The notes beneath the pieces were generated by a model. It was not told the origin of the DNA. It ran no database searches and was given only the letters and a program-made list of their open reading frames with translations. Source: Phyllosticta citribraziliensis (taxonomy: Eukaryota). Taken from it: a DNA stretch of 64,000 nt. Made by a program: the position numbers and the translations under genes. Shown here piece after piece: positions 1,396 through 29,683 of the stretch (position 1 is the first letter of the stretch; every line of letters starts with the position of its first letter). Location of the stretch: positions 2,418,001 through 2,482,000 of the forward strand of contig NW_027117341.1 in assembly GCF_038025025.1 (NCBI RefSeq), given 5' to 3'.

Positions 1396-2082
1396 CTACT
1401 TCTCCTCTCCCTGCTTGTTGTCGATGCGTCCCCTTTCTTCCACAGCTGTCGCCATCAAATCGGCATAAGTGAACACGGACTGCTCTAGGATCTGCCTCTG
1501 CGCGTCAAGGCAACACTCCGTAATCCACCTAGACTTGGCGGTGGTGGCGGTGTTAGAAGCAAGGGAGGCATCCCACATGTCCTCCAGCTGCTCAATGATG
1601 CGGCCCGATATCTTGACAATGCTCCAAGAAACCCAGTCCTTGTTGGACGTGGTTATGGGCGCGGCGGCGGTGGCGGCAGGGGGAACTCTACCGCTGCCGG
1701 CCATAGGCTTGGTTTTCCAGATGGGGAGAGGAGGAGGAAGTTCAGCACTAGGAGAGGAGTGCTGTTCGACTTGTTGCGCTTCTAATGCTCTTGCTCCTCC
1801 GTCTCCTCCTCCTCCTTATGGAGCCGTAGTGATGGGCTTAACGGGCGGGGCGCACTGTTACACTGCTCCAGCCTTGGGCTTTAGAGAGTTGTCCGTTGGT
1901 GCATACATCGGCGGCCTTTAGGGACACTATCATCTGGTGTTAATCAGGGACCACTAGTTGAGAAAGACCTGGCCTACCATGGATGGGTTAAGTTCGAGCC
2001 GGTGGTGTCAGCAATGACCGTCATAGATCCCGCTGTTCTTGTACGACGTGCCCGCGAGAGTGGTGCCTTGACACTGGGATAT
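1396..2082 (-). pseudogene. CCCH-type zinc finger + 'IIxQLExM' domain gene, copy 1 (RIP-type lesions)
   Basis: Exons 2082-1978, 1933-1907 and 1854-1396 join in frame across introns 1977-1934 (GTAGGC..CAG) and 1906-1855 (GTATGC..CAG). The product reads [I]SQCQGTTLAGTS[Y]KNSGIYDGHC[*]HH...SGRIIEQLEDMWDA...QRQILEQSVF. Both ends align with the intact gene at 14626-15397. Inferred lesions: ATG>ATA (2080-2082), TGC>TAC (2041-2043), CGA>TGA (2008-2010), CAA>TAA (1816-1818). Confidence 0.75.
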
Positions 2083-3236
2083 GATGGCGCCGGTCGTAAA
2101 TTTGATTGGGTTGCGTTGTGCTCTTCTAGTTGACCGACGTGGGAGGGGGAGGCTAGAGTACTCCAACCCGCCTACAAATATGGTGACTTCTTCTTGGTGC
2201 ATCAAAAGTGGACCGCGGGAATGGGAGGGCGGGAGCAAACGCGACGCGAAGCGACCGTAAAGCCCGCGGCGTTCTGAGTCCCGGACAAAGTTGGGAGGAC
2301 AACCTAAGACAACCGCGGGAAATCCAGGAAAGGAATCTCAATGACCACGCCCAAGCTCTTGTTGTTTCGTCCTCGTCCTCTTCCCCGTCCTCGTCCATGA
2401 CGGCCGGACAGGTATGCATGTCTGTCCGCTGTAGATTGCGATCCACGAAGGCCAGCAAGTCGTGCAACTCACTTGTCATTTCTCGGCTTTTGAAAGGCGA
2501 TGCGAAAGCCTCCTTGAAAACTCAAAGGATCCAGCTGCATCATTTGAAAGGAGGAGACGGCATCCTCCTTTGTTCTCTTCATCCGCCGCGCCGCAACACC
2601 GCCTGCTGATCCATCTTCATCCAAGACATGCAATTCGGCGACGGCGTATTGAGTGACGACATGGTGGCAGGAGAGCCTGCTGCCCCTTGATAATGATTGG
2701 TGGCGGTATGCGTTTATTGGGTTGAGCAGGGAGGAGGGTCGCTATACGGACATGGCCACGAGGTTGTGGGCTTTGGCGAGCAACTGCATTTGGTTCGGGT
2801 TGTGGAGACGGAGGCCTGTATGAAGTAAATGTGATGTTTAGCGTCTTTCGTGCGGACAGGCGGGTGGGCGGGGGCGATTGGTACCAGGGGTCGGAGCAAA
2901 GGAGAAGACATGGTTGGATGTCTTGACTGGCAGAGATGTGACTTTGGACTTGTGTGGCTGCGTGGTTGTGGTTGTGGTTGTGTTTCTTGTGTTCCTTGAC
3001 CTGACGTACGGGTTGGTCCAGAGTAAACCCGAGGTAGCGCCGTTCCTTGGCCGTCATGCCTGTCATGAGGTGTCATGTTGTGTTGTGTCGCGTCCCGGTC
3101 GCGCCGCGTCGCGTCGGCGAGTCATGCGGTGTCGCGGACACGACGCGGGCGCGCCAACAGAACCGTACCTTACCGTAGATCCACCAGACCTCATTAAATC
3201 CGCCCCCACCAACCAACCACATCATCCGATCTCAGA

Positions 3237-4230
3237 ATGCCCACGTCTCGTCCCCCCAGCCTATCGCCTCCGCAATCCAAGCGCAACGACCCCAACCCCG
3301 ACCCTGACCGCGAGTGGCCCGCCGTCCGCATCCTCGCCCAACAAGACGACCATTATCAGATTCAGTGGGAGGGCGACTGGCTGCCGACATGGGAGCCCAA
3401 GGTCAATGTCAGTGCCGCGCTGCTTCGAGGGTGGCGTCGTCTTCAAGTTTCTCAACTTCCTAGCCCTGGCAGCTTCTACGAGGCACGACGCATCATCGGC
3501 GAAAGATTGCGTCAGTATCTCATTGACTGGGAAGATGATGAGTTTACGGGCGAGAAATACAAACCGACTTGGGTCCACAAGGCAGACGTGACGCCATCAC
3601 TTGTTTCTGAATGGCAAACCAATCGGTAAGTCAGCAGCCCCTTGAAAGGAAGCCTGGCACAGTCTAACACGCCATGTTCGTTCGTCCTTCTCCAGGTCGA
3701 AGAAGAAGAAGCGCAGAGGGCGAAGCGTGTCCGAGAAGTCTGCCAGTCACCACCCCGACCGAAAGCCGAAAGACGCCACCAGCGCCCAGGACAACCGCGT
3801 GCGCACCGAGTCCCCAAGCGGCCCCGCCGATGGCACAACACAAGCCAATCCTCTCTCTCCCAGAGACGCCGATGGCACAACACAAGCCGATCCTCTCTCT
3901 CCCAGAAACGCCCAAAATTCTTCTGTCCCTCCAACAACTCAGGTCTCTGAGACTTCGCGTTCGGAAACACCCGATTCAGCATGGCAGAAACTCTTACGAC
4001 GTCGCCGCGCAGGGAGCGAGAGAGCAGCGTCACCCAGCCTGACACAGGCGGTGGATGCCACGCCCCACGACCAATTGCACGCTGCCATTGTGGACAGCGC
4101 GCCTGAACGCAATCCAAGGAAGAGGAAGTCAGAGCTGCGTGACGTCTGGGCGGACTTGGTGGATGACACACCGAACTCGACTATCATGGCGTCCAACAGC
4201 GTAAAGAAGGGGGTGTATGGCAAGAAATGA
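3237..4230 (+). CDS. Tandem chromodomain-like protein with disordered basic C-terminus (~307 aa), copy 1
   Basis: Exon 1 (3237-3625) has two chromo-like units: EWPAVRILAQQDDHYQIQWEGDWLPTWEPKVNV and YEARRIIGERLRQYLIDWEDDEFTGEKYKPTWVHKADV. Intron 3626-3695 (GTAAGT..CTAAC..CCAG) joins it in frame to ORF 3727-4230, creating an NLS-like RSKKKKRRGR. Exon 2 contains a 42-bp duplication at ~3826-3910. Confidence 0.85.
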
Positions 4231-5376
4231 GTTATGAATGGGAGGGAGATGTTGCGCTTCAAGACGTGGTGGATGCCAGGATCATGTCACGTCCTCTACT
4301 AGTGGAGTGGACAGCAATGATATCACTAACGCGGACACCCCCCTGTAATACCAACCAACCGGCGCGCGCGCGGACACGCTGACACCTGCCCCTACGTTCT
4401 CTGTATCAACATTCAGCACTAACAGCCCTCGCTCCTCTTGGGTTGTGGCTTTCTCCACTCGCCGCCGTTCTCTTCTCCCCTCCGCCCGCCCACCCGCCCG
4501 CACGCACGCACGCACGCACATGAAACCAAAAACTCCAAACGCCTTGCAAGCCCGACCGATTCGCTTTCCAGCAACTGTCTTTGGTGTCTGTCGCCCCCGA
4601 CATTCGACCCGCCAGTCTCGGTCGTGTCGTGCGATCAAGTCTCATCCTCGGCCCGTCCGATCACTCCAGCTGGTACATCGCGAGGACTTCCCGAAACGAC
4701 CCCCTGAGCCAGGACTGCTCGCATGCGCGCAAGGCCTACCCACCCAAGCTTGTAGATTGGCCACGGGCTTGGAAACGCATCTTCAGATGCATTGACGGCG
4801 GGCGGGCAAACTCAAACCACCCACACACACACACATGTCCTCCCGTTGTTCAACGATGCGGGTGGACATTTTGCAGATGCTGCCCAAGGAGCGGCAGGCG
4901 ACACCATCGGCGGCGTTGCGACCCCAAACGCCTCAAGAGGTGAGCTCTTGACGAGAGACTAAGAGTCGGACGAGGTATCACACAGGTCAGCGCTGCGCCA
5001 GAGAATTGACAAGATTTTGCATTGTCGCCCGTCATGACGTGCATGCCATTGCCCCAGTCCCATTGATGACGTACTCCTTTCGGCCAAGCCACTGTGGTCA
5101 ATTTGGTGCCGTTGCCGATGCCAGTGCCGGTGCTGGTGTTGTTAGGTATGCGCCTGGGGTATTAGGGATGGGTGCTGGCGGCAGAGAACTCTGTCGAGAT
5201 ACGTGGGGCAGGAGGCTGTTGGGGGTGGAACTGGGGTGGCTGCGGCTGGGGATACGGATAGGTATTGAGCGACCATGATGTACCATGTAGCAGCGCCATG
5301 CTGCGTCCACGGCAGCGTGCCCTGATCAACCCACCCACGGTGAGAAAGCCTTCGTTCTGGGCCATAGGAGCGTACG

Positions 5377-5378
<2 letters not shown>

Positions 5379-5422
<44 letters not shown>
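5379..5422. repeat. (GA)n microsatellite
   Basis: About 22 perfect GA units. Confidence 0.95.
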
Positions 5423-5425
<3 letters not shown>

Positions 5426-6199
5426 GGGCGTGGGATGCAGGTCACATCTTGTTACCGACAGTAGGACGACGCGTTGGCCTCTTTATATTCGGCACAAGAG
5501 AAAGAGCACACACACCAAGCCTTGCTGGTGCTGGAGAGAAAAGAAAGGGTTGAGGAATCGGCGCTACCGTAGAGTGAGTTGCTGTAGCTAGCATACTCAA
5601 CACCTCAACCACTAAACTCCCTTCACCGCCCGACTATGATCAGCAATTGCAACCCCCGCCGCCTAAATTCATGCTTCTTCTCTCCTCCCTACTGTATACC
5701 GCCACAAACATGCGCGTGCGCTCCACCTCCCAAAGTAAGGTCATGCCTCGCAAACTGCAAGCCGCAAGCCCACGCCCAAGGCGGCCAATGAGGCATGAGA
5801 GGCCCCCCCGGCGCGCTCGCCACTCCACTCCATTAAGAAAGACATGGCGGAGTGCAATCCTCTTTCAAATGTAGATAGCTCTGCTTGCTTGAGTCGGCAT
5901 GACAGCTGACCTTCTTTCTTCCCGTGGCTCCAACGATGCCGAGTCTTCGCGCAAGTAGGGAGAACATGCAGCGACACGCCGTCCAAGGTGCCTGGCTGAG
6001 AAAAAACGTCGTGATGCGGTGGCCATGTTGATATCGAGTTGGTGCCTCTTGGAGAAAAATGGCAAATGTGCGCCCGTAGTTCTATCCTCTGTAATGACGT
6101 GTGGTACCTTGGATCGATACCGTAGATGCGGCCGACCGACGACATGGCCAGCTTGACGTACGTAGCAGCAACGACGTCTCGTGCCACCACTTTGTTGAT

Positions 6200-8533
6200 T
6201 CAACCCGCGCTCGCCCGGCCAATTTGGTCCATGAGCAGGCCGACGGAACGAATCTTGCCGCGCAGCTCGGCACCCTTCATTCCCAGCCTCAATCGCATGT
6301 CCTGCACGGCCTGGCTGAGCCGTTCAATCCGACAGGCCTGTTTCGCGTGTTTGGCCCTCTCGTCTGTAATGTCCTTAAGCTTCTGCTTCCTCAGCGCAAT
6401 TGACTCGCTAAGCGCCTGCACGGCCCTGATGTCGTTGGCGTCATCTTGCTCGGGCGAAAGGTCGGCCAGCTGCTGTAGAAGATCCTCGCGCATGGCGATG
6501 CGCTCTTTCTCGAGCTTTCCAGCGTCGTCGTAGTCGTCGTCGGGTGACTCGGCGTGCTTTCTGGCCATGGTGTAAATTTGGCTGATAATGGCGCTTGCTT
6601 CAAATGCGGTATTCTCATGCTCTACCACTAACTGGAGGGCCTTTTTCGCCTTTTGATACCAGGAGATCAACTCGGTGGCTAGAATTGCGTCTGAGTCTTG
6701 AACCTGGGGCACCAGTGCGGCGATGTCGATTGATTCTTCTTCTGTCAAAGCAAATTGCAAGATCCGGCGCCAGACCTTTGCGTCAATCTCCTTGGGAAGT
6801 GTTCTCTGGGCCAGGAGGTAGAAGCACTCGGCCAAGATGAAAACACCGCAATCGGTAGAACCCTGTTGCTGGGGACAGTCGGAAGCGGCAAAAGTGTCCT
6901 GGCCACTACTTGTGCCACAAGCTCGAAGGATGGCACGACCAATGTGCGAGTAGGGTGTGTCCTTTGAACGCACAGAATCAAAAAAGTCGACCTGTCCCGT
7001 CTCGACATGTAGGCTAAAGAGAATCCAGTGATTGCGCCGGCAGAGAGGAGCCACAACCATACGGGCCTTCTTGTCGGAGCTAAAAGGTCTCGACTGCACA
7101 CTGCTCCACTTGTCCCAATCATCATCGTCGGGGGGCGATATGGCTAGAAATCTGCACCCCAGGCCTTTGAACATGCCCAAGACTTGCCAGACCTCATTGT
7201 CCGAAAGACGTTTGCCATCCTGGAAACGGGACGCGTCTGGCTGGTACATGGAGTTGGCATCTTTTTCTGGGTCCTTTTCTAGGTTGTGGCGCGAGGAAGA
7301 AGAAATCGGGGTAGACGGATGCGCACGCGTTTGAGACGGGCTGAGCTGAAACGTGGAGTTGATCCGTTCGGGGGGTTGAACGGGCGGACGAGAAGCAGAA
7401 AGCCGAGTGGCGCGGGATTCGAAAAATATGGACGACGTGGAGCGATGACGAGGCAGTCGAGATGGACTAAAGCCAGACTTGCCTTCGTGCGAGAGTGAAA
7501 AGGGAGCAAATGGCTGAGAGCTGTTCGGTCTTGTTGGTCCAGCGCCGAATAGAGTAATGGCAGGGGTCGGCATCTTGCTGGATTGCTTAACAGATTGAAG
7601 TTCCTCGTTGGCAAAGTCAAATTCGTCCTCTGAGATGATGGACTCGCTGTGCGGCTCATGACGGCCCACCTCTGTCGGCATGGCGGCAGTTCCGTCTTCC
7701 CCAAGCAGACCAGAGTTAAAGTCAAAGTCCTGGTCCATGGGGTGCGTCTCTCCTTCGACCGTCGCAGGTTGTACGCCCTGTTCCTTGTCATGTCCAGCCT
7801 GTTCGTCGCCTTCAGTGTGCAGTTTTACAGCGCTCGACTCGGGCTGGAAAGCTGCATCTTGGCTGCCATCTATGGGATTGATTGTTCTGGAAACGGTCGA
7901 CAGAGGCGCGCCCTCAGTCTTGGGGCGTTTGGCTGGCGATGGGGCGTGTGCCAGCGAATTGCTGTCGAGGGGCCTTCTCGCTCGTGGAGAGGGACTGGCC
8001 TGCTCACGCGTCTTCGGCGCCATCTTTCCGACTTTCAGAATGGTTCTCGCCTCTTGAATGTCGTATGGTGTTAGGGATGTGTCAAAGCACACTCCCTTCT
8101 TGGCCAGGGTTCCTGATTGACGTTTACCACGGGACTTGTTAATAGCATCCACCCAGGTTGCAAAAGGCAGAGGGTGGTGAGCAATAGCAGCAAGCTCAAT
8201 GACCGTGCGCCGTGAAAAGACAAACTCAAGACTCCACTCTTGGGCTAACTGCGAAAGTGAAACACCCCACGGTGACTTCTCAATGAGTGTAATCCGGGAT
8301 GCGTTCTCACCAAAGCAAGCCTCAGCAGTGGCAACCAGCTTGCGGTGGCCGTCACTAAGCTTGAGCCATAAGGTCTTCTTCATCAACCCATAACGCTGGC
8401 AGATGGCGGAAAATGCATGAAGAGTGTTGATCGATGGTACAGTGGTGGTTTGCTCGAACTCGCGAAGGTCTTGCTCAAGGCTGTTGGGAGCACTGGTGCT
8501 ATCGATTATAGCAAGTTGCTGCGTCTTGACCAT
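6200..8533 (-). CDS. Ulp1/peptidase C48-like cysteine protease with N-terminal unnamed domain and C-terminal coiled coil (~777 aa), copy 1
   Basis: Uninterrupted ORF; first ATG at 8533 (MVKTQQL). C48 motifs in order: RLSDNEVWQVL, VVAPLCRRNHWIL (His), VDFFDS (Asp), CPQQQGSTDCGVF (oxyanion Gln + Cys). An E/K/Q/R/A-rich heptad tail follows. Confidence 0.9.
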   Translation of the reverse strand: MVKTQQLAIIDSTSAPNSLEQDLREFEQTTTVPSINTLHAFSAICQRYGLMKKTLWLKLSDGHRKLVATAEACFGENASRITLIEKSPWGVSLSQLAQEWSLEFVFSRRTVIELAAIAHHPLPFATWVDAINKSRGKRQSGTLAKKGVCFDTSLTPYDIQEARTILKVGKMAPKTREQASPSPRARRPLDSNSLAHAPSPAKRPKTEGAPLSTVSRTINPIDGSQDAAFQPESSAVKLHTEGDEQAGHDKEQGVQPATVEGETHPMDQDFDFNSGLLGEDGTAAMPTEVGRHEPHSESIISEDEFDFANEELQSVKQSSKMPTPAITLFGAGPTRPNSSQPFAPFSLSHEGKSGFSPSRLPRHRSTSSIFFESRATRLSASRPPVQPPERINSTFQLSPSQTRAHPSTPISSSSRHNLEKDPEKDANSMYQPDASRFQDGKRLSDNEVWQVLGMFKGLGCRFLAISPPDDDDWDKWSSVQSRPFSSDKKARMVVAPLCRRNHWILFSLHVETGQVDFFDSVRSKDTPYSHIGRAILRACGTSSGQDTFAASDCPQQQGSTDCGVFILAECFYLLAQRTLPKEIDAKVWRRILQFALTEEESIDIAALVPQVQDSDAILATELISWYQKAKKALQLVVEHENTAFEASAIISQIYTMARKHAESPDDDYDDAGKLEKERIAMREDLLQQLADLSPEQDDANDIRAVQALSESIALRKQKLKDITDERAKHAKQACRIERLSQAVQDMRLRLGMKGAELRGKIRSVGLLMDQIGRASAG

Positions 8534-10485
8534 TGAATAGAGAGCAGACGCAGAGAGAAAACAAAACGGCGGGAGGCGAGTGGTGGTGTTTGTGACTGGT
8601 TGGTTGTCCGACAAGTGGCACGATTCAAAGCAAAGAGTGAGATGGATTATAGAAGTCGGCAGTGGCGGACTGGTAGTTGTGAGGGCGCGAAGCCGCTAAT
8701 CCTAGTTTGTGCACACAATTCTGACACAAGTTCCACGAACGGAACTTGTGTCGAGTCACGACACAAATACATCTACCTGCCTCCCCACAAGAACATTATG
8801 CACCACATCATGACATCCAAATTCTTTCCTACCAGTCGCAAAATCACTTGTGTCGTCCTTGGGTCGCCCGGCTACTACGCAGTCGTGTGGTTATTTGGCC
8901 TGGTTGCGCTGCCAGGTGCTTCTTCGGGCACGCAACGCGCGACCGTGAAACGCGCGACCGTAGGCTGCGCGATGCGACCGTGAAGCAGAACGACATCCCA
9001 AAGTACGCCCTCACAACCAACTCATCTTGGCAGCCTTTGCAGATGTTCCACTGCTCTCGCTCGCATTTCCACCCCATGCCACCAAATCCACCACCGCACC
9101 CAAGCCGGGACCAGCACGCCCGCCATCAATCCGTTGCGCCCCGGCCAACGCTCCTCACCCACGCTACCGCATCACGCTTCCAGTATACATACCACCATCA
9201 TGATTGACAAGGGACAAGGGAACAGATGGTGGGGTCCATCCACAGCTGCTCAGCGATCAAACTGCCAGGAAGCGTTAGTGTCTCGGAACGCGCCGATGGC
9301 TGGCAGAGGGCCTGGCCTAGCGCAATGACAATGACCTGGTGCCTGACCTGACGGCTGCTTGGCGGCACATCCGGAATATTCGGCGACACGCTTTCGAGGA
9401 AAGGAAACGAAGGGGCAGGGAATACACAAGGGTGAAAGATAGATGCTGCAGTATCCCGCGTTTTATTTCCTTCGCGCCAATGAGGGCAGGGCCACGGGAG
9501 GCGGGTATATTATCCTAGGTAGTCCACCAACCAGACCAGAGTGGAGCACCAGCGTCGTCGCCAAAGGCGCCGACACACCCAAAGTCCCCCTTGCACCCAT
9601 GTCCGTTGCAAACGTGCGGCGGGCGACCTGGTGCAGCTGTACGCGCGGCTCCACGGCGACGGCGAGCGGGCCGAAACGGCCGACCGTCGAGGTTGGTCGT
9701 GCTTCGGGAGAGGTGCGTTGAGCTGTGCGCCGCCAAGCTCGCTGCGTACCATCGGTTCCACCTGGCCAAGTTGGTTTGCATGGGATTGGTTGGTCTGAAG
9801 AGCACGTCGTGGGCGTGGTCCTCGCGGGGCTTGGAGGCGGGCGGGCGCTGTCTTCCATCACGGGCTTACGCTTCCGCCAGTAGCAGACCGCGGGCAGGCA
9901 AATGGCGAGCAAGTGGTTGTTGTCGAGGAAGAAGTCGAGGGAGTGGCCAGACATTTTGCCGCTGTTGACCGGGCCTTTTGTTCCCCCCGGCAAACTTTCC
10001 CTCATCAGGGAGGGTCGTACGGCATCGCATTCAGCACCCCTGCATGTTTTTCGCGACATTGACGAAGGGAGACAGAGCTAAGCCCCTTACACAGGCTCCC
10101 AGCTTCATACGTACATACATACATACATACCTCGGGCCGACAGCGCCATCGCGTCCCATGAAAGACGGCCAACAGCGACTCCTCAAAATCCGCGCCCCCT
10201 GCTGCACACCCTCTTCAAGTCAAAAGACTACATACGAGCGCGAGGAGGCAGCCCAAAAGACGCGCGTACCCAGGCATGGTCACCACAAACACAGAGAAGG
10301 AGTACAGCCAGCAACCTTGTGCCCTTTTTCTGTGTAGGTACCTAGGTATACATGGGCAGCCTGGTCCTGGTCCATGTCCAACACGACGGAACAAACGAAA
10401 GCCTTTCCTTTCCGTACACCCTGCAAGTCAACAATGTGTGTGTACCCAGCGCAAGCCGGCGAACTATGACTAGGAGTAGCGATAT

Positions 10486-14075: not shown

Positions 14076-14498
14076 ATGCAGTCCTGCATCCACCAGCTCT
14101 ACGAGTGGGGGAGGATCCTCGCCATCAGAACGGACCCGAAGACGTATCACTCACCGTTTTGGCCATGGTTTCGAAGGGACCCAACTCCTGAAATCATGCG
14201 CCAAATCCTTGAGCAACAATCACCGACCAAGCATGAGGAGGATCAAGAACAAGTCCCCATGCTGCCTCCTCCTCCTTCGCTCGCTATTACGCGCCTGCCC
14301 ACGCCGGAACCGCCCCTGTTTCCTTCCGTGCTTTTCAATCAAATCGAGCATACCGCAAGCGGCCCTGACGCTGGGCGCGCCCCAGCTGTCGAGCACGACA
14401 ATATGACAGGAGCGGGGCGAAACAACAACGATAAAGACGTGGAGGAGGAGGAGGAGAAGGAGGAGGAGGAGAAGGAGGAGAAGGAGGAGGAGTTGTAA
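14076..14498 (+). CDS. Hypothetical protein, Trp/Pro-rich with acidic tail (possibly the last exon of a gene starting ~13562)
   Basis: 140-aa ATG ORF with GC-rich third positions, ending in E/K low complexity. No recognised domain. Confidence 0.4.
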   Translation: MQSCIHQLYEWGRILAIRTDPKTYHSPFWPWFRRDPTPEIMRQILEQQSPTKHEEDQEQVPMLPPPPSLAITRLPTPEPPLFPSVLFNQIEHTASGPDAGRAPAVEHDNMTGAGRNNNDKDVEEEEEKEEEEKEEKEEEL

Positions 14499-14500
14499 TA

Positions 14501-14573
14501 AACCGCGACTGGCCCGCCGTCCGCATCCTCCCTCGCCGAACACCAAGACAGCTACCAAATACAGTGGAAGCGG
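14501..14573 (+). pseudogene. Chromodomain gene fragment (copy 3)
   Basis: Reads NRDWPAVRIL-[4-bp duplication cctc]-AEHQDSYQIQWKR, closely matching DREWPAVRILAQQDDHYQIQWEG at 3306-3373 and REWPVVRILDEHDDEYLLQWEG at 22804-22869. It is truncated. Confidence 0.85.
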
Positions 14574-14625
14574 CATTTTCTCGCCATTCATTACAATCTG
14601 TATGCCCGTAGTATCCGTTGCATCT

Positions 14626-15397
14626 CTACAGTTCTTCTTCTTCCCCCTTGGACTCCACGTGTTCCATCAACATTGTCAACATCTCGCCAAACTCAAAGAC
14701 ATCCCGGATGACGGCACGCCTCTGGATGTTGATGACAGCATGAACGACATGGTCCTGGGTGTGACCTGGTGTTGGAATATTGCATGCAGCAGCACACATG
14801 GTTTCCAGCTGGTTGATGATGGCGGCCGACATGTCCCGCGGGTTCTGAAACGAACCCGGACCCCAGTCGAAACGAGGCAGCTGAGTGGTAATTTGAATTC
14901 CATCACCCTCTCTGCATCTTTTCATGTCGCTCTGAAGAGGCTCGGAAAGCTTGTGAGCTGGAGAGGTGCCGGAACAGGACGCCCGCGCGGCGTCGTCCTT
15001 CCCAGTGCTTTTGCTTTTCTTGCTCGTGGTCTCGCCCCGCGGCCGCAACGTCGACCAAGGACGCACGAAAAGCTCGTCCTGCTCAGATTCATTCCCGGAA
15101 AATGCATACATGTCGCCCTCTGACGCATGCACTTCCGCGTTGGTGTCCACAACGATGTTCGTCTCGCGCGCGTCCTGGTGTATTGCTCAAAAAGTCAGCG
15201 CCATTACAAAGACTTGAAGAACCAGGGAAGAAATGGGATCGATCAAGCTGACTTACAGCTGGCTTCAGCTTTGCCGCGCGCCTTACGGTCGGAACGATAG
15301 AGTCGGATCCCTGATAGTGGTAGCGGCATCGACCGGCAACTTTGGCCCGCTTCTTGCATTGTGCGCCTACTCGCGTCGTCCCCTCGCACTGAACCAT
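14626..15397 (-). CDS. CCCH-type zinc finger + 'IIxQLExM' domain protein (~229 aa), copy 2, intact
   Basis: Exon 1 (15397-15257) reads MVQCEGTTRVGAQCKKRAKVAGRCRYH (C-x9-C-x9-C-x2-H). Phase-0 intron 15256-15175 (GTAAGT..GCTGAC..CCAG). Exon 2 (15174-14626) ends SAAIINQLETMCAA...IQRRAVIRDVFEFGEML...EEEEL. Confidence 0.85.
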
Positions 15398-15441
15398 GGC
15401 GCCTGAAGCTGGTTTGCTGTGGGTTGAGGGAGGGAGGGAGG

Positions 15442-15447
<6 letters not shown>

Positions 15448-15476
<29 letters not shown>
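15448..15476. repeat. (GA)n microsatellite
   Basis: Perfect GA/AG run. Confidence 0.9.
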
Positions 15477-15479
<3 letters not shown>

Positions 15480-16154
15480 GGTGGATAGGGGAGTCTCTAT
15501 CCTCAGGGTGAGTATTTGGACACATGGAGGCGCCCGACGCTCATCATTACGCAATGATTCAGAAAGTCTTCCCTGGGACTGTAGGGGCCCTTCTTTTGGC
15601 GCATTGCCAGACATCTTGACTGCGACAATTACTTCCCCACGGACCACCGCCACACACCGGCCACATTTCGCAGTAGGATGCAGGCCTACGAAGACGACCA
15701 AGCGCCCCACGCGAACCTCCCGGCGGCCGACGGGATCAGCCGGCTGATAATGACGATCCATAGACAGGAAGCGGTCAGGTTTTGCACGCTTAGTGGTGCC
15801 CAGAAGCAGTGGTGTCAGGTGAGTGCATCACAGACGGTCGGTCGCGAAAGGTCGAGAATCATCAAAAACAGTGAAAGTGATGCAGCGAGACGACGCCAGC
15901 GGCGAAGGGATACCTACGGCGAGCAGGAGCCGACTCAGAGACGTCGGTTTGCTCAAGAAGAGCGGAAAAAAAATCGCGGGAGAGCTCAGTTATTGTCTTG
16001 TCTAGCTGAGCGCGCGCGAAGACGCGCCTAACTACTGAACCACTGAACCACCCACTGAACCACGCCAATCACCACTGCGTCACCGCACAGGCCTCCCTAA
16101 CCTCCATCTCTCAACAAACTTGTTGGGCCGACAACAGCGAGCTGCTTGGTGTTG

Positions 16155-18437: not shown

Positions 18438-19064
18438 TCACTCCTTCACACGCATCAAGACACGGCGGCGATATCGGGACAGGCTCTGGCTCGGGCTGGG
18501 ACTAGGACTGGGTGCTCGGTAGACGTGCCTGCGTGCCGCCGTCGCTGTCACCAGCAGCCCTTCTTCCCAGGAGTGAGGCGGTTGCTCCGGGTCAGAGCCA
18601 GCAGTAAGGGCGGCAGCTCTAGAGAGTCGTCCGCGGCAGTCCCAAAGACGTCGTCGTACATTGCGGTTGGAGGGCTCATCCACATCCAGGTCAGATAGCG
18701 TCCGCTTGCGGCGCGGTTTCGGCGCCAAAGGAGGCAGAGGAGTCGTTGGATCTACTCGTGTTTGATTGATGGGTGTGGTGGGGGCGGCCGGGGCCGGTCG
18801 ACCGTGATGCTCTCCTCTTTTGCCGTCGACCCTGTCGGTTTGGAGCGCTTCTTTGCAGCGTTCTCGTGGTGATGTTGGCTGCCCGGTGGGATGCTCGTCC
18901 TCTCCAGCTTGGCGGATCGAGTCTTTGTTTTCATGGATTTGACGAGGAGAAGGAGGACCAGCTTCGAACGCATCCGATGCTTCTGGCGACAGTGGAGTAT
19001 TTTGACGAGAAGGACGGATTCCGAGCGCGCCCGCCGATACTTCTGGTGGCACTGGAGCGGCCAT
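18438..19064 (-). CDS. Disordered basic protein, 'RRKRTLSDLD' family, copy 1 (208 aa)
   Basis: LPPLAPKPRRKRTLSDLDVD..RNVRRRLW..TAGS..EEGLLVT..ARR..RA.S.SPSPS..RVKE is collinear with ORF 24305-24892. Confidence 0.75.
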   Translation of the reverse strand: MAAPVPPEVSAGALGIRPSRQNTPLSPEASDAFEAGPPSPRQIHENKDSIRQAGEDEHPTGQPTSPRERCKEALQTDRVDGKRGEHHGRPAPAAPTTPINQTRVDPTTPLPPLAPKPRRKRTLSDLDVDEPSNRNVRRRLWDCRGRLSRAAALTAGSDPEQPPHSWEEGLLVTATAARRHVYRAPSPSPSPSQSLSRYRRRVLMRVKE

Positions 19065-21317: not shown

Positions 21318-21590
21318 ATAGGCCCCTAGCAGCGAGCACATAGGTAGGCCCCGGCGGCGAGCATACATGGCCCCGGCGGCAAGCATGGAGGCCGCCGGCG
21401 GCGAGTAAACAGGCCGCCGGCGGCAAGCATGTAGGCCACCGGCGGCGAGCACACAGGCCGCCGGCGCGTGGGCCCCCGGCGGCAAGCATACAGGCCCCTA
21501 GCAAACGCGCCCCTAGTGAGCGCGTAGGCCGTCTGTGAGCACATAGGCCCCCAGCAGGTGAGCAAGCACGTAGGGCCCTAGCGGGCGCTC
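21318..21590. repeat. GC-rich minisatellite, ~21-23 bp unit (consensus ~taggccgccggcggcgagcaca), ~11 degenerate copies
   Basis: Repeated ggcc(g/c)ccggcggc(g/a)agca motifs. Outer copies show cc-tag variants. Confidence 0.85.
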
Positions 21591-21780
21591 TATAAACTTT
21601 ATTAACATCTTCATCCTTAGCCGGCTACTTGTTTGAGGCATCATCCTTAGAAAGTGGCGACGACATTCAAGCCCCCATGTCCTGTCCTCAAACTTGGGAA
21701 AACCCGCCTTCATGATCTCGTATTTTATGTTGCCATCTTAAGTGGTTGAGGACCTGCTCTACAGCGACCTTCATCAACGT

Positions 21781-22401
21781 CTTCATCGTCCTTGGCCGGC
21801 TGCTTTTCGAGGCCTCGTCCTCGGTAAGTGCGGGCGGCATGTTGTGTGCGACTGCGGCGTCTTCATCGTCTCGTCTTCATCCTTGGCCGGCTGCTTTTTT
21901 GAGGCCCCGTCCTCGGAAAGTGCGGGCGGCATGTTGTGCGCGACTGCGGCGGAGATCTTCATCGTCGTCGTCTTCGTCCTTGGCCGGCTGCTTTTCGAGG
22001 CCTCGTCCTCGGTAAGTGCGGGCGGCATGTTGTGTGCGACTGCGGCGTCTTCATCGTCTCGTCTTCATCCTTGGCCGGCTGCTTTTTTGAGGCCCCGTCC
22101 TCGGAAAGTGCGGGCGGCATGTTGTGCGCGACTGCGGCGGAGATCTTCATCGTCGTCGTCTTCGTTCTTGGCCGGCTGCTTTTTTGAGGCCTTGTCCTTG
22201 GAAAGTGCGGGCAGCATGTTGTGCGCGACTGCAGAGGATGATGAATGCTGAGGATGAAGATGGCGAGGTGCCCGTCTTCGTCCTTGGCCGGCTGATTTTT
22301 CAAGGGCTCGTCCTGGAAGTGCGGGCGGCATGTTGTGCGCGACTGCGGCGGAGGATCTTCATTGTTGTCGTCTTCGTCCTTGGCCAGCTGCTTTTTTGAG
22401 G
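21781..22401. repeat. Tandem array of ~91-116 bp units with a 188-bp higher-order duplication
   Basis: Anchor cttggcc(g/a)gctg at ~21790, 21881, 21978, 22069, 22166, 22282 and 22378 (spacings 91, 97, 91, 97, 116, 96). Confidence 0.95.
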
Positions 22402-22719
22402 CGCAAAATGGATTGGCGGGTTGCGAAAACGAGGGATTGCGGCGACATGACTGCAGAGCGGCTGGTAGAGGCGCAAAGAAGCGGGCGAGGGAAGACGAAT
22501 GAATGAATGAAGTCAAGATGGAGGTTGGATGGTGAGGACAGGAGGAGACGGGAGACGGGAGGCGGAGGCGGAGACGGAGGCGGAATGGAGCGGCCCGGGG
22601 GTGTCGCGTCATCACGTGACTGCGCGCGTCTTTCGGGCACCCAGACGACTGGACCTGCGGGAACAAACAACACCCAAACCAACACCCACCCGGACCCATT
22701 GACGACCACCGCTGAGATC

Positions 22720-23766
22720 ATGGCTCGCCTCAACACTACTCCGTCCGCCAAACGCAAACCCAAACGCAAACGCGAGACCTCTCACGAGCTGTCTGACACC
22801 AGCCGCGAATGGCCCGTCGTGCGCATCCTCGACGAACATGATGATGAGTACCTACTACAATGGGAGGGCGACTGGCTCCCGTCGTGGGAGCCAATGGACT
22901 CAGTCACCAGCGACAAATTGGTCAGCGACTGGCGTCGGCACAAGGCAGGCAGCGAGCGGGTCTACCACCATGTTCCTTACTACTGGCCCGCAAATCGCAT
23001 CATCCGCGAAACAGCACACCACTTCCTCGTAGAATGGTCTTCGGAACAAGCGACGGGTGCGACATACGAGCCGTCGTGGGTCCCCAAAAAGGACGCAACC
23101 GCTTCTCTCCTTGATGAGTGGAGGAGCACGACAAGGTTCGTCGGTCCTGCACGTGCCATCTAAAAGCAAACGGCCGAACATGCATGCTGACGTCATTTTG
23201 CCCACAGGCCCCAGGAAAAGCGCAGTCGTGTGCAAAGGCGAGCCGTTCGATTTCCCGTTTGCGACGCGGACGACAAAAGCTCAAGAGTTAAGGAGGGTGT
23301 GGAGGAACATGGCCACGACAGATCTCCCAGCAGCTCAAACTCGGACCAAGAGACTGCGGAGGAAGAAGGCGGGGACGGGGAAAATACAGCTGGCCAGGGC
23401 ACATCACCCAGCTCAAGCATGGACCAAGGGACTGTGGAGGAACGGGACAACACGGACCAAGAGAATGTGGAGGATCCCAAGGGTACAAACGCCCTTGTCA
23501 ACAGTGGTCGAGCCCGTGACGCCGACCAACAGTATGGTTCAGACATGACCACTGTTCACCCTGTGCCTGCCACATCGTTTCAACCCAATTCCCCCCTATT
23601 CCAGGCGGGCTCGGAGGCCGGCGCACTCAAGAAGCTACGTCGCATGCGCCAAAACAAGGCTCAGTCAGTCGCAGCAGCCGACGTCGTCACCGACAGACAC
23701 CACAGGAGGGTCACTCCCGGGTCACCGATACAGTGGCGGCTGGGACGACTTCCTAGAGCCGAATGA
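22720..23766 (+). CDS. Tandem chromodomain-like protein (~324 aa), copy 2
   Basis: ATG 22720, NLS-like KRKPKRKR, then EWPVVRILDEHDDEYLLQWEGDWLPSWEP and YWPANRIIRETAHHFLVEWSSEQATGATYEPSWVPKKDA. Intron 23136-23207 (GTTCGT..GCTGAC..ACAG) has essentially the same position and phase as in copy 1 and joins in frame to ORF 23230-23766. Confidence 0.85.
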
Positions 23767-24304
23767 GAATACCGGCTTGCCAACGGGTTCAACTCCATCT
23801 ACGGCTCGAGACACAACAGGGCTTTAGACAGGGCCAGGCATGGAGGAACAGTCCAAAAGTGGCGAGCGTGAGCCGCGGGAGCTGCGAAATGACACGGGCG
23901 GGTGTGGTTGATGCACGCAGTCAAATGGCTAGAATAAATCAAACCTTTCGCTGTCGCGCCCGACCCAGAACCCGAGCCCGCGGGCAGGTAGTTACATGCT
24001 GAATTCACTGACACCTAGGTCCTCGGAAGTTCTGCGCAAAATGCCGCTGCGCCGGCCGAAGCGATCAAGGCACATACCAGCCCCCAGACAAACGAGAGCG
24101 AGTATTCAGACGGTCAAGAAGTTCTCGGCCCAAGGCACTACAGCTGCCGCATTGGAACATGGTCGATGGAAAACGAACGCAAGATACAAGTCTTGGACAT
24201 CCACATTCGGCAATCATCCGCCGATATGACCTATCCTCTGTGCCAGCCATGTGTCTTTTGCCTTCCTCTCTCCCTCCCTCTGCCGTCATCATCACAGCGA
24301 CTAC

Positions 24305-24892
24305 TCACTCCTCCGACAACTCCTTCACACGCGCCGAGCTGGGACTGGGACTGAGACTGAGGGCCCGGGACATGATGCGCTTGCGTGCCGTGGTCAGCGT
24401 CACCAACAGCGGTTCTTCCCCGGGGGAAGTCGATTTCGCCTCCAGACCAGAGCCAGCGGTGTAGGCGCTAGTGCTTGAGTGTCCCCTGCTGGTACCCCAA
24501 AGGCGTCGATGCACGTTGCGGCTTGGGTTCTCGCCCGAGGGCAAGTGATCCGCATCTAGGTCGGATAGTGTCCGCTTGCGGCGCGGTCTTGGGGCCAAAG
24601 GGGGGAGTCGTTGAAGGAGCAATGAGATGTTCGTCTTTGCTTGATAGGTGTGGTGGGAGGAGCAGCGAGACGGATAGTCAGTTGATGGAGATGCTCTCCT
24701 TCTCCTCTGTCGTCGGGCCCGTTGCGGGTTTTGGACGATTCTCCGCGTCCTTCTCGCACTGATTCTGGCTGCTCGGTGGAATGATGCTAAGCCGCGTCGG
24801 TCTGGCGGGTCAGGCCTTTTGTTTCCATGATTTTGACGACGAGGGAAAGGAGCGTCTGCTGATGGTTTTGCCGGCGACAGAGCAGCGGCCAT
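24305..24892 (-). CDS. Disordered basic protein, 'RRKRTLSDLD' family, copy 2 (195 aa)
   Basis: LPPLAPRPRRKRTLSDLDAD..RNVHRRLW..TAGS..EEPLLVT..RVKE. The central part matches copy 1 in another frame (AAPPTTPIKQ in ORF 24556-24759), suggesting compensating frameshifts. Confidence 0.7.
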   Translation of the reverse strand: MAAALSPAKPSADAPFPRRQNHGNKRPDPPDRRGLASFHRAARISARRTRRIVQNPQRARRQRRRRASPSTDYPSRCSSHHTYQAKTNISLLLQRLPPLAPRPRRKRTLSDLDADHLPSGENPSRNVHRRLWGTSRGHSSTSAYTAGSGLEAKSTSPGEEPLLVTLTTARKRIMSRALSLSPSPSSARVKELSEE

Positions 24893-27387
24893 TATGATGA
24901 TGAACGACGAAAGAGTGGAACGGTCAGACGAAGGGAGAATCGTAACAGTCCTCCTGGTTTGTTGCTCGGGGGCTTCGTCAATCTTTTAAGCCGTCATCGA
25001 TTCTCCCCTGACGAGGAACAATCTCATAATTCCCGAGACATGATTTGCCGCTTCGCCGGCCCTGAACACCAACGACCTTGACGATCAAACGACATGATGT
25101 AAAGTTGAACGCTGGAAGATGCGCTGTTTGGTCATGGCCAAGCGTGCTGAGCTGTGGCTGACATCTGTTGAAGGCCGGTGTTAAGGGCTGGCTGCAGTGA
25201 TCCTTTCCCCGCGGCCCCTGTATGACTGATATCTTCTAATTCTTGTCCGTGTCCCTGTCCTAGACGCGATGCAGTTTGATCCGTCCTGTCCTCCGGTGGC
25301 TTTTGAGTGCTGGCTCTGGCTGCTGCAGATGCATTGATCATGGATGCCGGCGGCTCTTCAGTCATTGACTGCGTTCATCGTCGCTGGGCTGATTCTGTCG
25401 TTGTGAGATTTCCTTTCTCTATGACGCCTGTACATGTTCACTTACCTCCTGCTCTTCGCTCTCGGTGTTGCTCTGATCCTCATCGCACTGTGCATCCTGC
25501 ACAATGTTCTTTGCTAGGCTTCCACCGGGCGCGACTCTGTTTAGTTGGCCCGGAAAAGCGCTTCTTCTACTTGTCCTGGAGCCTTGGCTACAACTCGGGA
25601 AAGGTTGCTCACATGGATTTTGGTATTCTCGTGGCGTAGCTCGCGCGTCAGTTCTCCGTCGGCGTCGGAGCTTGGGGTGGAGCCACCGAGTGAGTTTTGG
25701 AGATGCGTCATGGGGAGGAGCAAAGGGGGATGAGGCGATAGAATCAGCATGGCATCGAGTGGAGGCAGATGGGTGCAGAAAGGAACTTGCCCTGCTGCTG
25801 GTGAAAGCTGTGGGTTCAGCCGTCCTCTGCGCTGCATCGGTGCCGGCGTCTCTTGAACGACGACGGGAGAAGCAGCGAGTAAGCTGGCTGTAGAGACCAC
25901 GCAGGATGAGCCCTTTGCGCCAACTGCTGACACTGAGCGCTGCTCTCTCGTCGCACCTTTTGCACCTCACGTTCATCTTGCCCTTTGATTCCCTCGACAC
26001 AATCCTTGCACCCACCGCAGCCTTGTTCAAGGCGTCGTCGACATTTGTACAACAAAGACCCGCCACCGTCTCCGACTGAATTAACAGCGACGAGCCAGCA
26101 CCATGTTCGAAGTCCCTGGTCCTTCTCCACACGTTTCGCGGCACCATGGTCGACTACAACCACACGAGTTGCAGGCAACGCATGCGCTCGGCGCCGCAGG
26201 CTGACCACGCCATCCTCGGGCTTGCTGCTGGCTGTTATAGGCTGATGAGATTCAGCAGGTTTGCGTCATGGCCTCGTGATGGCGTGGGGACTGAGGTGGG
26301 AGCGAATCCGAAGAGTGGGGAGGACTAGGCGATTCGGGTGGGGCCGGGCATGTATCGCGGTTGCAATGTCGGCGGGTATGAGTGTGGAGAATCAAGGACA
26401 GGTGGGAGGCAGAGGGCGAACCGCTGGATGCCCGATTCGCCCACCAAGCGGCCTGCTAGTTTGCGAAATATCAGTTCTAACAGCCAACTGATAGCATCCC
26501 GTCTACATCCATATCAATGCTTCCGACTGGAACGATGATCCCAGTCTCCGCGTCCTGCTCACCCTTGTTACCCTCGCTTCCTCCAATTGCCTTATCTGGT
26601 TGGCTGGTGGCATGATGCCCTTCTCTCGGCTTCCCGTGCTCGCCTCTTCGCTCATGTCTCTCGGCTTCCCATGGTCGTGTCTCTTGGCTTCCCTCCCGTT
26701 CTCACCTCCACTTCCTCCTTGTCTCTTGATGTGGAATCGAGGCAGTATCGACATGGGCATGCTTGAGCTGAGGGCATTCCGAGACACGGTCATGTAAGCG
26801 ACCGCAGGCTGGTGGAGGCGTGGTTTCAATGGTGAAGAGAGAGCAAGAAGGTAGCGAACGCGCTCGACGCGTTGGCTTGGAGGCTTTTGGAGAGGGAGAC
26901 GTAGACGTCGGCGTCGCGCGAAGCTGAAAGCCAATGGCGAGCAGATAGAATGGAAAACGACGAGGGCAGATAGATTGCGGTGGAGAGGGCTGGCGGCTGA
27001 CCAGGGCTTGCTTCGGGGGCGACCGACCTAGGTTTGTGGGTACGACGGCGTGTAAATGGTTACTGCGGTTGAGGAAGACGTGACGCTTTGGCTTGCAGGC
27101 CGTAGAAAAGTAGAGAGCGATGCGTGCAGTGCATTGTTCGATGAACTCATCAAGCATTGCAAGAACCATGATGCAACCAGAGGCGGGCAGGGACTCAGGT
27201 CGGTCGCTTACGGCACGGTAGTCCGGACTTCTGGTGATGACTAAGGGCCGCAAGGGAGTACCTGCCCGCCGCCCTGCGTCCTCACCATAACACCACACCC
27301 ACCCCCCGCTGTCGTTCTCACCTCAACACCACATATTCTCCTCTCCTCGACGCGCAATGCCTGCTCTCTGCGGACAAATCCTTCTCC

Positions 27388-29683
27388 ATGGCGCCTCTGC
27401 CCGCAGACCTCGGCGCTAAGTTGCAGCAACTGTGAGACGCGTGCCCATAAGCAGCAGCATACAAGTCGACCTCTGAGGTTCTGAGGGACTTCCTCACTCT
27501 GTTCGATGACACGCGCGCAGATTTCAAGCGCAACAACCTGAGAATCGACAACTACCTTGACAGCGACTCGTACAATGTCGTATGCATCGCCGAAGCAACA
27601 TTTGGGCGCACCAAGCGGCTGGTGCGGCACCTCACCGATGGCCCTTGGCAACTGACGCTGGACGAGCTTCAAGACATCTTTTCCGCCACGGTCCTTCGCT
27701 CCCACGACTTTCTCGAAGCGCTAAACAAATTTGCCGCTTCAAAAGGCTCACGCGTCGGCCGCGATACGGCTATATCAGCTATCAAAAGGGCTCGAGACAC
27801 GAGAAGAAACAAGACAGGCAGGTCGGGAGTTTCTACAACGCGCGACTGGGCGCCGCAGGACATAAAGGATGCATTGTTGGCTTTCCAGTCAAACGTATCG
27901 ACAGAGCCTCGCAGTAGAAGGAGGCAGACATAAGGTACCTACATCTCTTTTCCTCATCCATGTTTCAAAACCGTTCTCACATACCAAGCAGCATCCTCAC
28001 ATGTCAGCTTCTCCATCAAGGTCGCCGTCTTCTAGTCCGAATCATGACTCGCCGAAGCGTCGAAAACTGTCAATCACTGAGGAATCTCCCCTGGGCTTTA
28101 ACGGCTCGCCTTCTTTTCGTAACCGCCCTTCGCATCCCAACACGCCCCCCCGTCTTACCATCTCCGAAAAACTCTCCGGATCCCCTGCCGTCGTTGAGAA
28201 TACCGCTTTGAGTAATCGGTCTGCCAAGCTTAAACCTTGTTCAAGCAAACATGGCCATCCGTCTACACTGTCCACCGCCAGCGATGGCTCGCCTTCGAAA
28301 CATGGCGGGCTTCGAGAAGAATCTCCTGAAGATGTCGAACATGGCCGAAACACCATCGGCTTACCTCTGAATGATGACGCCGTTTCTGACGCTAGCGACA
28401 TTGACTCCGCGGACGCATCAACCTTCCCTATAACAGAGGACGAAACCTTCAACTTTGACATGGGCGAGTTCCTAACCCCCCTAAGCCGGAACACAGTCGA
28501 GGACAAGGAGCAAGATGAAACCCAGCGGCCTTTGGAGCAAGATGAAACCCAGCGAGCTTTGGAGCAAGATGAAAACCACCAGGCTTTTGGGCGAGGTGAA
28601 ACACAGCGGGCTCTGGAACAACTCAGCGGGTCGAATTGGCTTGGACACACTGCAATCTGGATGATTCTCTCGTGCGTCAACGCCGGCAACAGAGCACGCG
28701 TCGTTGAACCTGTCTCGCCGCCCAGGACGGCTGAAGGCTGGCGTGATTGGGGTCAGACCAACTCATTCACCGTGCCAAAAATGTGCGAGGTCGTTCTCAT
28801 TCCGCTCCATGTGGCACCCCGCCAGCACTGGGTCCTGGTAATAATGGACATGTTGCGGCGACAAGCGACACTGGTTGATTCAACGAGGGATGACGAAGAG
28901 GACGCAAACGTCTTCGAGGCTTGCGGTCAAGCATTGCTCGCATCGATTGGCATCAAAGATGGAGACTCATGGCAGCTGCGCAAGTGTCAGGATGCGCCCC
29001 AGCAGAAGGGGCCAGATGATTGCGGCATCTACATGCTTGTCAACTGCCTTCGAGCCATGCAATTCAGCAACCTCAACTGCCAAGACGTCGATGCTGGCCT
29101 ATGGCGCTTCCTATTCAAGAGCGCTCTTGATGCGGGCGTTTCCAAAGAAAGGACAGACGTCATCATTCCGCGCGCGCCGTCGTCGGCGGACTTGGGCAAC
29201 GAAGTGGAGCAGTATGAGGCATCGGGGAGGCACCTGAAGAAAATTCGCTCGTTTGAACGCGCAGCGGAAGAGACGACAAGGACTTTGGCTTTGGCCTGCC
29301 AGCGCGCCATGGCCATACCCACCCTCGCTCAACTGAAAGAGGATGCAAAGTGGAGAAAGTGTGCTCTCTCCCAGCTCGGCTCCGGCATTGCGCACAGCGA
29401 AGACGACACGCTTCGTAACAGCCTGGAAAAAGCAATTCGAGACCGAGAAGAGGAGATTGCAGAAATGTCAAAGGCCATCATCACTCTTGAGCAGCAAAAA
29501 TCAATCCTTCAACGCGTTTTCGGTTTGGCCAGCAAAGTCCACCAAGACGCCCGGCGCTCACTTGGGGAAGCGGAGTCTGCTCAGCACAAGAGACGGACAG
29601 AGCTACAGCGTATGCGGGACGAGGCGCGTGCGGTAGCTCAAAGGATAGAGAAGGCGTTTGAAACTAAGAGTCAAACTGACTAG
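27388..29683 (+). pseudogene. Ulp1/peptidase C48-like protease, copy 2; exon 1 has three premature stops, protease exon intact
   Basis: Exon 1 (27388-27934) is homologous to the N-terminus of copy 1, with stops at 27433 (TGA), 27448 (TAA) and 27931 (TAA). Intron 27935-28007 (GTACCT..CTCAC..TCAG). Exon 2 has NWLGHTAI, VLIPLHVAPRQHWVL, TLVDS and PQQKGPDDCGIY, then a coiled coil to 29683. Confidence 0.85.

Follow-up and report, generated by a model that had tools for sequence, protein, structure and literature searches.

Within 28 kb of one contig, the genome of the citrus endophyte Phyllosticta citribraziliensis, a fungus, carries a gene cluster in which four protein families recur, and we think it probable that this is a vertically inherited, Phyllosticta lineage-specific cluster that evolves by birth and death of its genes and encodes products that are probably nuclear. 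The stretch analyzed, called the window here, comprises 64,000 nucleotides (nt) of assembly GCF_038025025.1 (contig NW_027117341.1, positions 2,418,001 to 2,482,000), and coordinates below refer to it. Between 1.4 and 29.7 kb, there are two genes for two-chromodomain proteins (chromo A and chromo B) plus a frameshifted fragment, two genes for Ulp1-type proteases of the C48 family (Ulp1 A and Ulp1 B), two genes whose products carry the motif RRKRTLSDLD (RKRT A and RKRT B), and one small gene with a Cys/His motif (the finger gene) plus one clear and one probable decayed copy. An initial annotation, made from the letters of the DNA, had proposed that these families recur in three loose groups, and we find all four at the places it named. 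Our six-frame self-comparison of the window gave the three clear paralog pairs (chromo, Ulp1, and RKRT), and weaker colinear matches, from pairwise comparison and hidden Markov models (HMMs), added the chromo fragment and the decayed finger copies. A sensitive all-against-all BLASTP comparison gave no further paralog pair in 1-42.5 kb, and correctly framed HMMs of the RKRT, Ulp1, and chromo families detected no extra copies in the window.

Chromo A (3237..4230, plus strand) consists of exon 1 at 3237-3625, a phase-2 intron at 3626-3695 (GTAAGT..CAG), and exon 2 at 3696-4230. Chromo B (22720..23766, plus strand), which is 100% identical to P. citribraziliensis protein P0001 from a 2.5-Mb contig, has exon 1 at 22720-23135, an intron at 23136-23207, and exon 2 at 23208-23766. 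The two genes match between 22507-23160(+) and 3198-3626(+), with 38% identity over 145 residues (E 2e-28). In both, a phase-2 intron lies directly behind the second chromodomain, a shared position that had been predicted and can be read from the sequence, with the chromo B intron spliced out in a contig described below. The fragment, a frameshifted first chromodomain at 14495..14582 on the plus strand, is recovered by tblastn (E 0.007) and by HMM (E 0.0046), is closest to chromo A and to protein P0007, and has 28 of 29 nt the same as chromo A at 14502-14530. A 20-residue match resembling the second chromodomain at 5854-5795(-) (E 0.17) was dropped, as it was not recovered by HMM. Just upstream of chromo B, units of 92/188 bp are repeated in tandem (5 or 2.5 copies, 21769-22239) beside a 44-bp repeat (21346-21466); contigs of two sequencing runs, X1 and X2, join 21790 to 21963, so that copy number or transcript form varies there. 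The public model P0011 of chromo A (window 3124-3626) has its N terminus in the wrong frame and skips the first chromodomain.

The assignment of two chromodomains to these proteins is based on three kinds of evidence. Both window copies fall below the cut-off of Pfam Chromo (PF00385), with E 0.21 for chromo B and no match for chromo A, and their homolog P0002 (48% identical) passes it in two stretches with 26.3 bits against a cut-off of 25.1, as do the homologs P0008, P0009, and P0010. A three-member profile searched against the PDB matched HP1-alpha (E 3.5e-4) and Schizosaccharomyces pombe Chp1 (E 7e-4), and its top 21 matches were all chromodomain proteins; when the profile was deepened and extended into the disordered tails, it gave nothing at E<=0.01. 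An AlphaFold2 model built from 35 sequences (mean predicted local distance difference test [pLDDT] score 81.9, predicted template modeling score 0.44) shows two beta-beta-beta-alpha units, and its good local Foldseek matches are chromodomains only; an earlier three-sequence model (pLDDT 49) was set aside. The aromatic cage, said initially to be kept, can be traced in part. The first and second cage positions of HP1 align to a Trp that is invariant in nine family members. The third falls in the loop behind the conserved Gly, which in domain 1 has lost two residues relative to HP1-type chromodomains, and therefore does not align; W52 is a guess for it.

We wondered how far this family extends. 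An exhaustive HMMER search returned 561 proteins at E<=1e-3, of which 7 reached E<=1e-30. Nearest are proteins of P. citriasiana, P. citricarpa, P. paracitricarpa, and P. citribraziliensis, followed by three-domain proteins of Diplodia and Botryosphaeria, and a tree places the Phyllosticta proteins in a single clade (100/100) with long unresolved branches inside. The Phyllosticta copies share the C-terminal motifs A-x-x-K-L-R-x-L-R and KSVYG-x-(K/R)3-LF. Judging by these relationships, the chromodomain family is specific to Botryosphaeriales and expanded in Phyllosticta. When metagenomes were scanned with the chromo alignment, three loci were found at 27% identity, and their flanks held no match to Ulp1, RKRT, or finger. 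By analogy with known chromodomains, the proteins would be expected to dock on methyl-lysine marks of chromatin.

Ulp1 A (6200..8533, minus strand) is a single 777-codon open reading frame (ORF) that matches PF02902 with E 9e-9, and Ulp1 B (27388..29683, plus strand), which is disrupted in the sequenced strain, matches it with E 1e-10; the two scores of 35.9 and 42.1 bits lie well above the cut-off of 20.7. The pair aligns between 27866-29680(+) and 6203-8695(-), with 27% identity over 169 residues (E 2e-12), and the N-terminal domains match each other separately (25% over 131 residues, E 3e-4). Ulp1 A is laid out as this common N-terminal domain, a disordered linker, a C48 domain with the H/D/Q/C residues, and a coiled-coil-like C-terminal tail. 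A profile of the family matches yeast Ulp1 (1euv, E 1.7e-7), SENP5, and SENP1, and the HW, (V/F)DS, PQQ, and DCG motifs of both copies align to the catalytic H, D, Q, and C of yeast Ulp1, in agreement with the prediction that the catalytic residues are kept. The family is a catalytically complete Ulp1/C48 cysteine protease with an N-terminal domain of its own. By analogy, it may act in the nucleus on small ubiquitin-like modifier (SUMO), Nedd8, or another such tag, taking it off target proteins. For the Ulp1 A N-terminal domain, the ESM Atlas gave no usable match, with all structure matches at template modeling (TM) score <0.35. Relatives of Ulp1 A, among 8000 word-filtered candidates scored per search, were the protein itself and one 800-residue protein of Fusarium torreyae (E 5e-7). 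The public model P0003 of Ulp1 A from the second assembly (6203-8533) removes 65 residues of the N-terminal domain as an intron, even though they are conserved in Ulp1 B.

In the sequenced strain, Ulp1 B is a pseudogene, as had been proposed: its N-terminal domain and C48 frames are disjoined. The N-terminal domain ORF (27451-27933) contains no Met; an ATG at 27388 is in frame, but stops come after it at 27433 and 27448, and there is no clean start codon. An intron at 27935-27991 (57 nt) is spliced, the C48 ORF (27866-29683) lies one frame off, and in the spliced message, the N-terminal frame meets a TAA at 27931.

RKRT A (18438..19064, minus strand) encodes a small basic protein of 207 residues, PPLAPKPRRKRTLSDLD...RNVRRRLW, whose exact ORF is annotated in NCBI, and RKRT B (24305..24892, minus strand) encodes 194 residues in a single exon. 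The two proteins are 47% identical over 64 residues (E 1e-6), and their DNA is 67% identical over 518 nt. Their conserved part reads PPLAP-x-PRRKRTLSDLD...RNV-x-RRLW, the N-terminal halves match in different frames only, and the motif RRKRTLSDLD is confined to these two ORFs. The 90% clusters of the RKRT ORFs have no other member. Contigs of X1 and X2 cover RKRT A, and an unspliced X2 contig (24250-25123) spans RKRT B. The GTGAGT found at both RKRT stop codons was considered as a splice site and rejected, because the X2 contig reads through it as far as 24250. The motif, in which RRKR is followed by S-D-L-D, resembles a nuclear localization signal with an acidic, phosphorylatable flank and may act as one. 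Its core RRKRT also bears a loose likeness to the ARKST sequence around K9 of histone H3.

The intact finger gene (14626..15397, minus strand) was read from sequence as exon 1 at 15397-15257, an intron at 15256-15175, and exon 2 at 15174-14629 followed by the stop. Exon 1 encodes C-x9-C-x9-C-x2-H, a pattern that fits the CCCH finger label given to it initially, although the label stands as a motif and not as a family assignment; a match to DUF5763 (E 0.0044) reaches 16.9 bits against a cut-off of 26.3, and the PDB search found no relative. Decayed copy 1 (1399..2103, minus strand) comprises a C-terminal part at 1611-1399 that matches the intact gene (pairwise E 2e-4) and an N-terminal relic at 2103-2002 in which the second Cys has become Tyr and a stop follows in frame after the third Cys, bearing out its description as a pseudogene. 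Decayed copy 2 (4786..5450, minus strand; HMM E 0.0042) is probable. It has a (CT)n tract at 5359-5449, the same upstream tract as the intact gene, then a look-alike of the ATG-proximal part, whose BLASTP match is not significant (E 78), and a conserved 50-nt block at 4832-4881 that is 76% identical to decayed copy 1. The long (GA)n/(CT)n tracts just upstream of the probable decayed copy (5359-5449) and of the intact gene (15420-15496) may be a shared promoter feature of the finger copies.

The cluster genes are real and transcribed. At eight places, contigs of X1 and X2 skip stretches of 51-72 nt bounded by GT..AG or CT..AC. The GT..AG joints include 23135/23208 in chromo B (X1 only) and 27934/27992 in Ulp1 B (X1 and X2), and there are six other introns. 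Because their contigs skip introns, we take both runs to hold RNA; no run with the locus is recorded as RNA. Over 10-30 kb, sequencing depth was found in all 30 bins for X1 and in 29 of 30 bins for X2.

Two further runs, X3 from a near-identical metagenome strain (depth about 3) and X5 from a related organism (depth about 73), reveal lesions in the sequenced strain that they do not share. After 27925, each of them has two additional bases, which join the N-terminal domain and C48 of Ulp1 B in one frame, and the Ulp1 B lesion is therefore recent and strain-specific. Near 23661 in chromo B, the sequenced strain has four extra bases relative to X3 and X5, and thus the annotated C terminus is frameshifted; a relic of the family C-terminal motif lies behind the stop. 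Pieces of X5 that are 85-95% identical to the window cover 10.5-11.2, 15.9-16.7, 17.2-17.6, 18.3-19.9, 22.6-23.2, 25.5-26.2, and 27.9-29.8 kb. As separate pieces spread across most of 10-30 kb, they fit vertical descent. The locus is also present in the second P. citribraziliensis assembly, on a 253-kb contig.

We estimated the age of the duplicates by the method of Nei and Gojobori from synonymous and nonsynonymous divergence. The chromodomains gave a proportion of synonymous differences (pS) of 0.66 and a nonsynonymous divergence (dN) of 0.38, with a ratio of dN to synonymous divergence (dS) of about 0.24. For the Ulp1 C48 domains, pS was 0.76, which is saturated, and dN 0.89, so that dN/dS is not computable, and the conserved half of RKRT gave dS 0.62, dN 0.38, and dN/dS of about 0.6, a value suggesting that RKRT is under weak constraint. 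Since the divergences differ, the pairs do not stem from one event, with the caveat that gene conversion could blur these ages. Of the proposed old co-retention of the families, the age is borne out for the chromo and Ulp1 duplicates, whose synonymous sites are saturated. The proposal fails for RKRT, with its dS and dN/dS of about 0.6 and its N-terminal halves out of frame, and the recent frameshifts that the sequenced strain has in both chromo B and Ulp1 B fit it poorly.

A birth-and-death cluster probably accounts best for these observations. Several rounds of local duplication, rearrangement, and decay would have built it, and the families would be adjacent mainly since neighboring genes are copied together and remain linked. 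Local duplication predicts second copies close by, and by a rough reckoning, to find second copies of four families within 28 kb is far beyond chance because the genome measures ~30 Mb (PMC9073689) and each family has a handful of copies. Decay is seen in the chromo fragment at 14.5 kb, in one or two dead finger copies, and in the frameshifts of Ulp1 B and chromo B. In one series of P. citricarpa, the accession numbers of two chromo paralogs differ by 7, and those of a second P. citribraziliensis pair of chromo-family genes, P0007 and P0013, differ by 16 on one 598,952-bp contig of the second assembly. Several points weigh against this interpretation. Gene order and orientation differ among the three groups, and hence there was no simple block duplication. 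Repeat-induced point mutation, whose traces lie next door (below), should punish young duplicates, which leaves the escape of these copies unexplained. Accession order as a proxy for gene order is an assumption that was checked in this window only, where 10 numbers span 19.5 kb, and in three other series, the chromo paralogs are 33, 237, and 3738 numbers apart, while the P. citriasiana copies are on different contigs. The absence of Ulp1 and RKRT elsewhere is weakly supported because the Ulp1 A search reached 8000 word-filtered candidates and RKRT was checked by 90% clusters. Finally, the recurrence of the four families could reflect selection for linkage, and a working partnership between them is possible.

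Such a partnership is the core of a rival explanation that we regard as unlikely. The cluster would be a chromatin/SUMO module in which two-chromodomain proteins bring Ulp1-type proteases to methylated chromatin, RKRT and finger proteins are adaptors or substrates, and selection keeps the genes linked; such a module might be useful to the host or be selfish. That four families occur together in three groups within 28 kb would fit, as would the loose likeness of the RKRT core to histone H3, purifying selection on the chromodomains (dN/dS ~0.24), the H/D/Q/C residues kept in both proteases, contigs of the spliced runs over all genes in 10-30 kb, and the position of the cluster beside a 17-kb block that is likely heterochromatin. 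However, local duplications and descent from them would account for the linkage just as well, neither the order nor the orientation of the genes is preserved, the pairs are of unequal age, and frameshifts in both chromo B and Ulp1 B are tolerated in the sequenced strain. Nothing speaks in favor of contact between the products, and the four families are seen together at this locus only. A predicted complex of the chromo B domains with the conserved half of RKRT B scored 0.00, which in a prediction made without controls speaks neither for nor against binding. A bolder form of this idea, which we consider rather improbable, is a reader-eraser private to Phyllosticta. Here, the two-chromodomain proteins would have arisen in Botryosphaeriales, with the chromodomain of HDA2-3 proteins as a relative, and would dock on methylated chromatin and recruit the Ulp1-type proteases, RKRT proteins would be histone-tail-like adaptors, linkage beside heterochromatin would be selected, and the rapid turnover of copies would reflect conflict, for example with transposons or between nuclei.

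The initial annotation had instead favored a selfish or mobile element. Ulp1-like genes ride on some plant MULE/CACTA transposons and on the KDZ class, and the cluster, with its Ulp1-like and chromodomain genes, might be the cargo of a large element, mobile or accessory, or what is left of one; a Starship-like, KDZ, or MULE/CACTA-like element or an accessory region would be candidates. Anti-silencing or drive, through de-SUMOylation of silencing factors, was the role suggested for it. The 42-kb GC-rich part has no Pfam match except C48 in 89 ORFs and abuts the block marked by repeat-induced point mutation, in which there is a weak trace of DDE_1 (54820-54996(+), E 0.048, below the cut-off). 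Those same 89 ORFs contain no Pfam transposase, recombinase, or captain domain, as the initial annotation had itself noted of mobilizing enzymes in the GC-rich part. A search of 1-42.5 kb for long terminal repeats, direct or inverted, gave nothing but arms of low complexity, with the proviso that ends may lie outside the window. The locus sits within a 2.5-Mb contig and occurs in both public P. citribraziliensis assemblies, the diverged pieces in the related organism X5 fit vertical descent, and the duplicates differ in age, so that we judge a mobile origin improbable. Among the papers that our literature search returned, none concerned an association of Ulp1 with chromodomain genes or Starships in fungi. 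Least probable by far is that the recurrences are chance resemblances among nongenes, compositional artifacts of GC-rich low-complexity frames. High GC does yield many long spurious frames (151 ORFs of at least 100 residues are listed in 31 kb), and the matches of the finger copies and of the fragment, at E 0.005-0.02, are weak, but the main pairs have E values of 2e-28, 2e-12, and 1e-6, transcripts are spliced, homologs exist in other species, and the fold was modeled with confidence. Chance resemblance is already refuted for three of the families.

As for the setting of the cluster, the window has two compositional parts, with a GC content of 56-60% in 1-42 kb and 16-29% in 42.5-59 kb. The AT-rich block shows a strong signature of repeat-induced point mutation. 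TpA/ApT is 1.4-2.0 in the block versus 0.5-0.7 in the GC-rich part, and (CpA+TpG)/(ApC+GpT) is 0-0.34 versus 1.1-1.4; the block was judged by the usual thresholds. This block of ~17 kb is likely heterochromatin and could be a pericentromeric or dead transposon island. It contains a ~3-kb tandem array (45948-48873) with a period of ~156 (also scored as 311 or 437), and in 37 of its 46 stop-free stretches of at least 40 residues, a Pfam scan gave subthreshold traces only. Elsewhere in the window, Pfam was run on 89 translations (16 + 73) out of 140 ORFs of at least 125 residues, the rest being overlapping frames of the scanned ones, picked by eye, and no family other than C48 (PF02902) exceeded its cut-off. 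The statement that the cluster holds no housekeeping gene is borne out in this sense, as an absence of Pfam matches. The entire GC-rich part (1-42 kb) is thus orphan-like by Pfam, yet spliced transcripts cover at least 10-30 kb. Other repeats include a 68-bp tandem repeat (3.8 copies, 31255-31507) among overlapping open frames and repeats of 131-138 bp and 90 bp at 60665-61750 within long minus-strand open frames, which have no Pfam match and look like an acidic-residue-rich repeat protein.

Among the papers that our literature search returned, there was no report of this gene cluster, and none of five protein numbers looked up was present in the supplements of PMC9073689. If the families work together, they would represent a lineage-specific link of histone-mark reading with SUMO removal in a plant-associated fungus and offer a tractable system, with a small number of genes that are expressed and of which some strains carry natural disruptions. 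If not, the locus is a clean example of an orphan-rich region growing by local duplication and decay beside DNA altered by repeat-induced point mutation. In either case, two public gene models need correcting, namely P0011 (chromo A) and P0003, with its intron inside the Ulp1 A N-terminal domain.

How do these genes compare with known systems? Like the Ulp1-like genes borne by MULE/CACTA and KDZ transposons, the C48 genes of the window are lineage-specific, multicopy, and outside the housekeeping Ulp1/Ulp2 set, but neither a transposase, terminal repeats, nor a high copy number is seen in the window. Against the Ulp1/SENP proteases (MEROPS C48), with which both copies share the PF02902 domain and the aligned H/D/Q/C, they differ by a private N-terminal domain that has no recognizable relative, by the length of their disordered linker, and by a coiled-coil-like tail. 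The single chromodomains superpose on those of Rhino, CBX7, and Oxpecker at 1.4-2.1 A over 52-60 residues, whereas compared with the HP1/CBX/Chp1/Rhino type, domain 2 carries a CPDExTGE-type insert and the proteins have their own C-terminal motifs and no chromoshadow domain. The best whole-model Foldseek match is CD2-CD3 of cpSRP43 (5e4w_C, E 3.2e-4), followed by CHD4, CHD5, and CHD1 (E 0.014-0.16). However, TM-scores against these double chromodomains are 0.23-0.29 and root mean square deviations 11-18 A, and neither the ATPase nor the ankyrin part of those proteins is present in ours. With scores this low and deviations this high, the domain arrangement is either not common with cpSRP43/CHD or not predicted.

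Proteins of Pezizomycotina that combine a chromodomain with HDA2-3 are described in PMC10666030. The N-terminal chromodomain of many fungal proteins of 1000-1700 residues matches the second chromodomain of our family (E 1e-10 to 1e-7), and five of the six such long matches that we scanned contain HDA2-3 (PF11496). This is the architecture of Neurospora CDP-2 in the HCHC deacetylase complex, of which the long matches may be orthologs. Unlike these CDP-2-type proteins, those of the window are small and have no HDA2-3 by Pfam. Nearest outside Phyllosticta are the three-chromodomain "chromo domain-like proteins" of Diplodia and Botryosphaeria (E 1e-35 to 1e-26), which have the same type of domain 2 with the TGE insert, but which possess three domains in 455-610 residues without the Phyllosticta C-terminal motif and form a separate clade (100/100).

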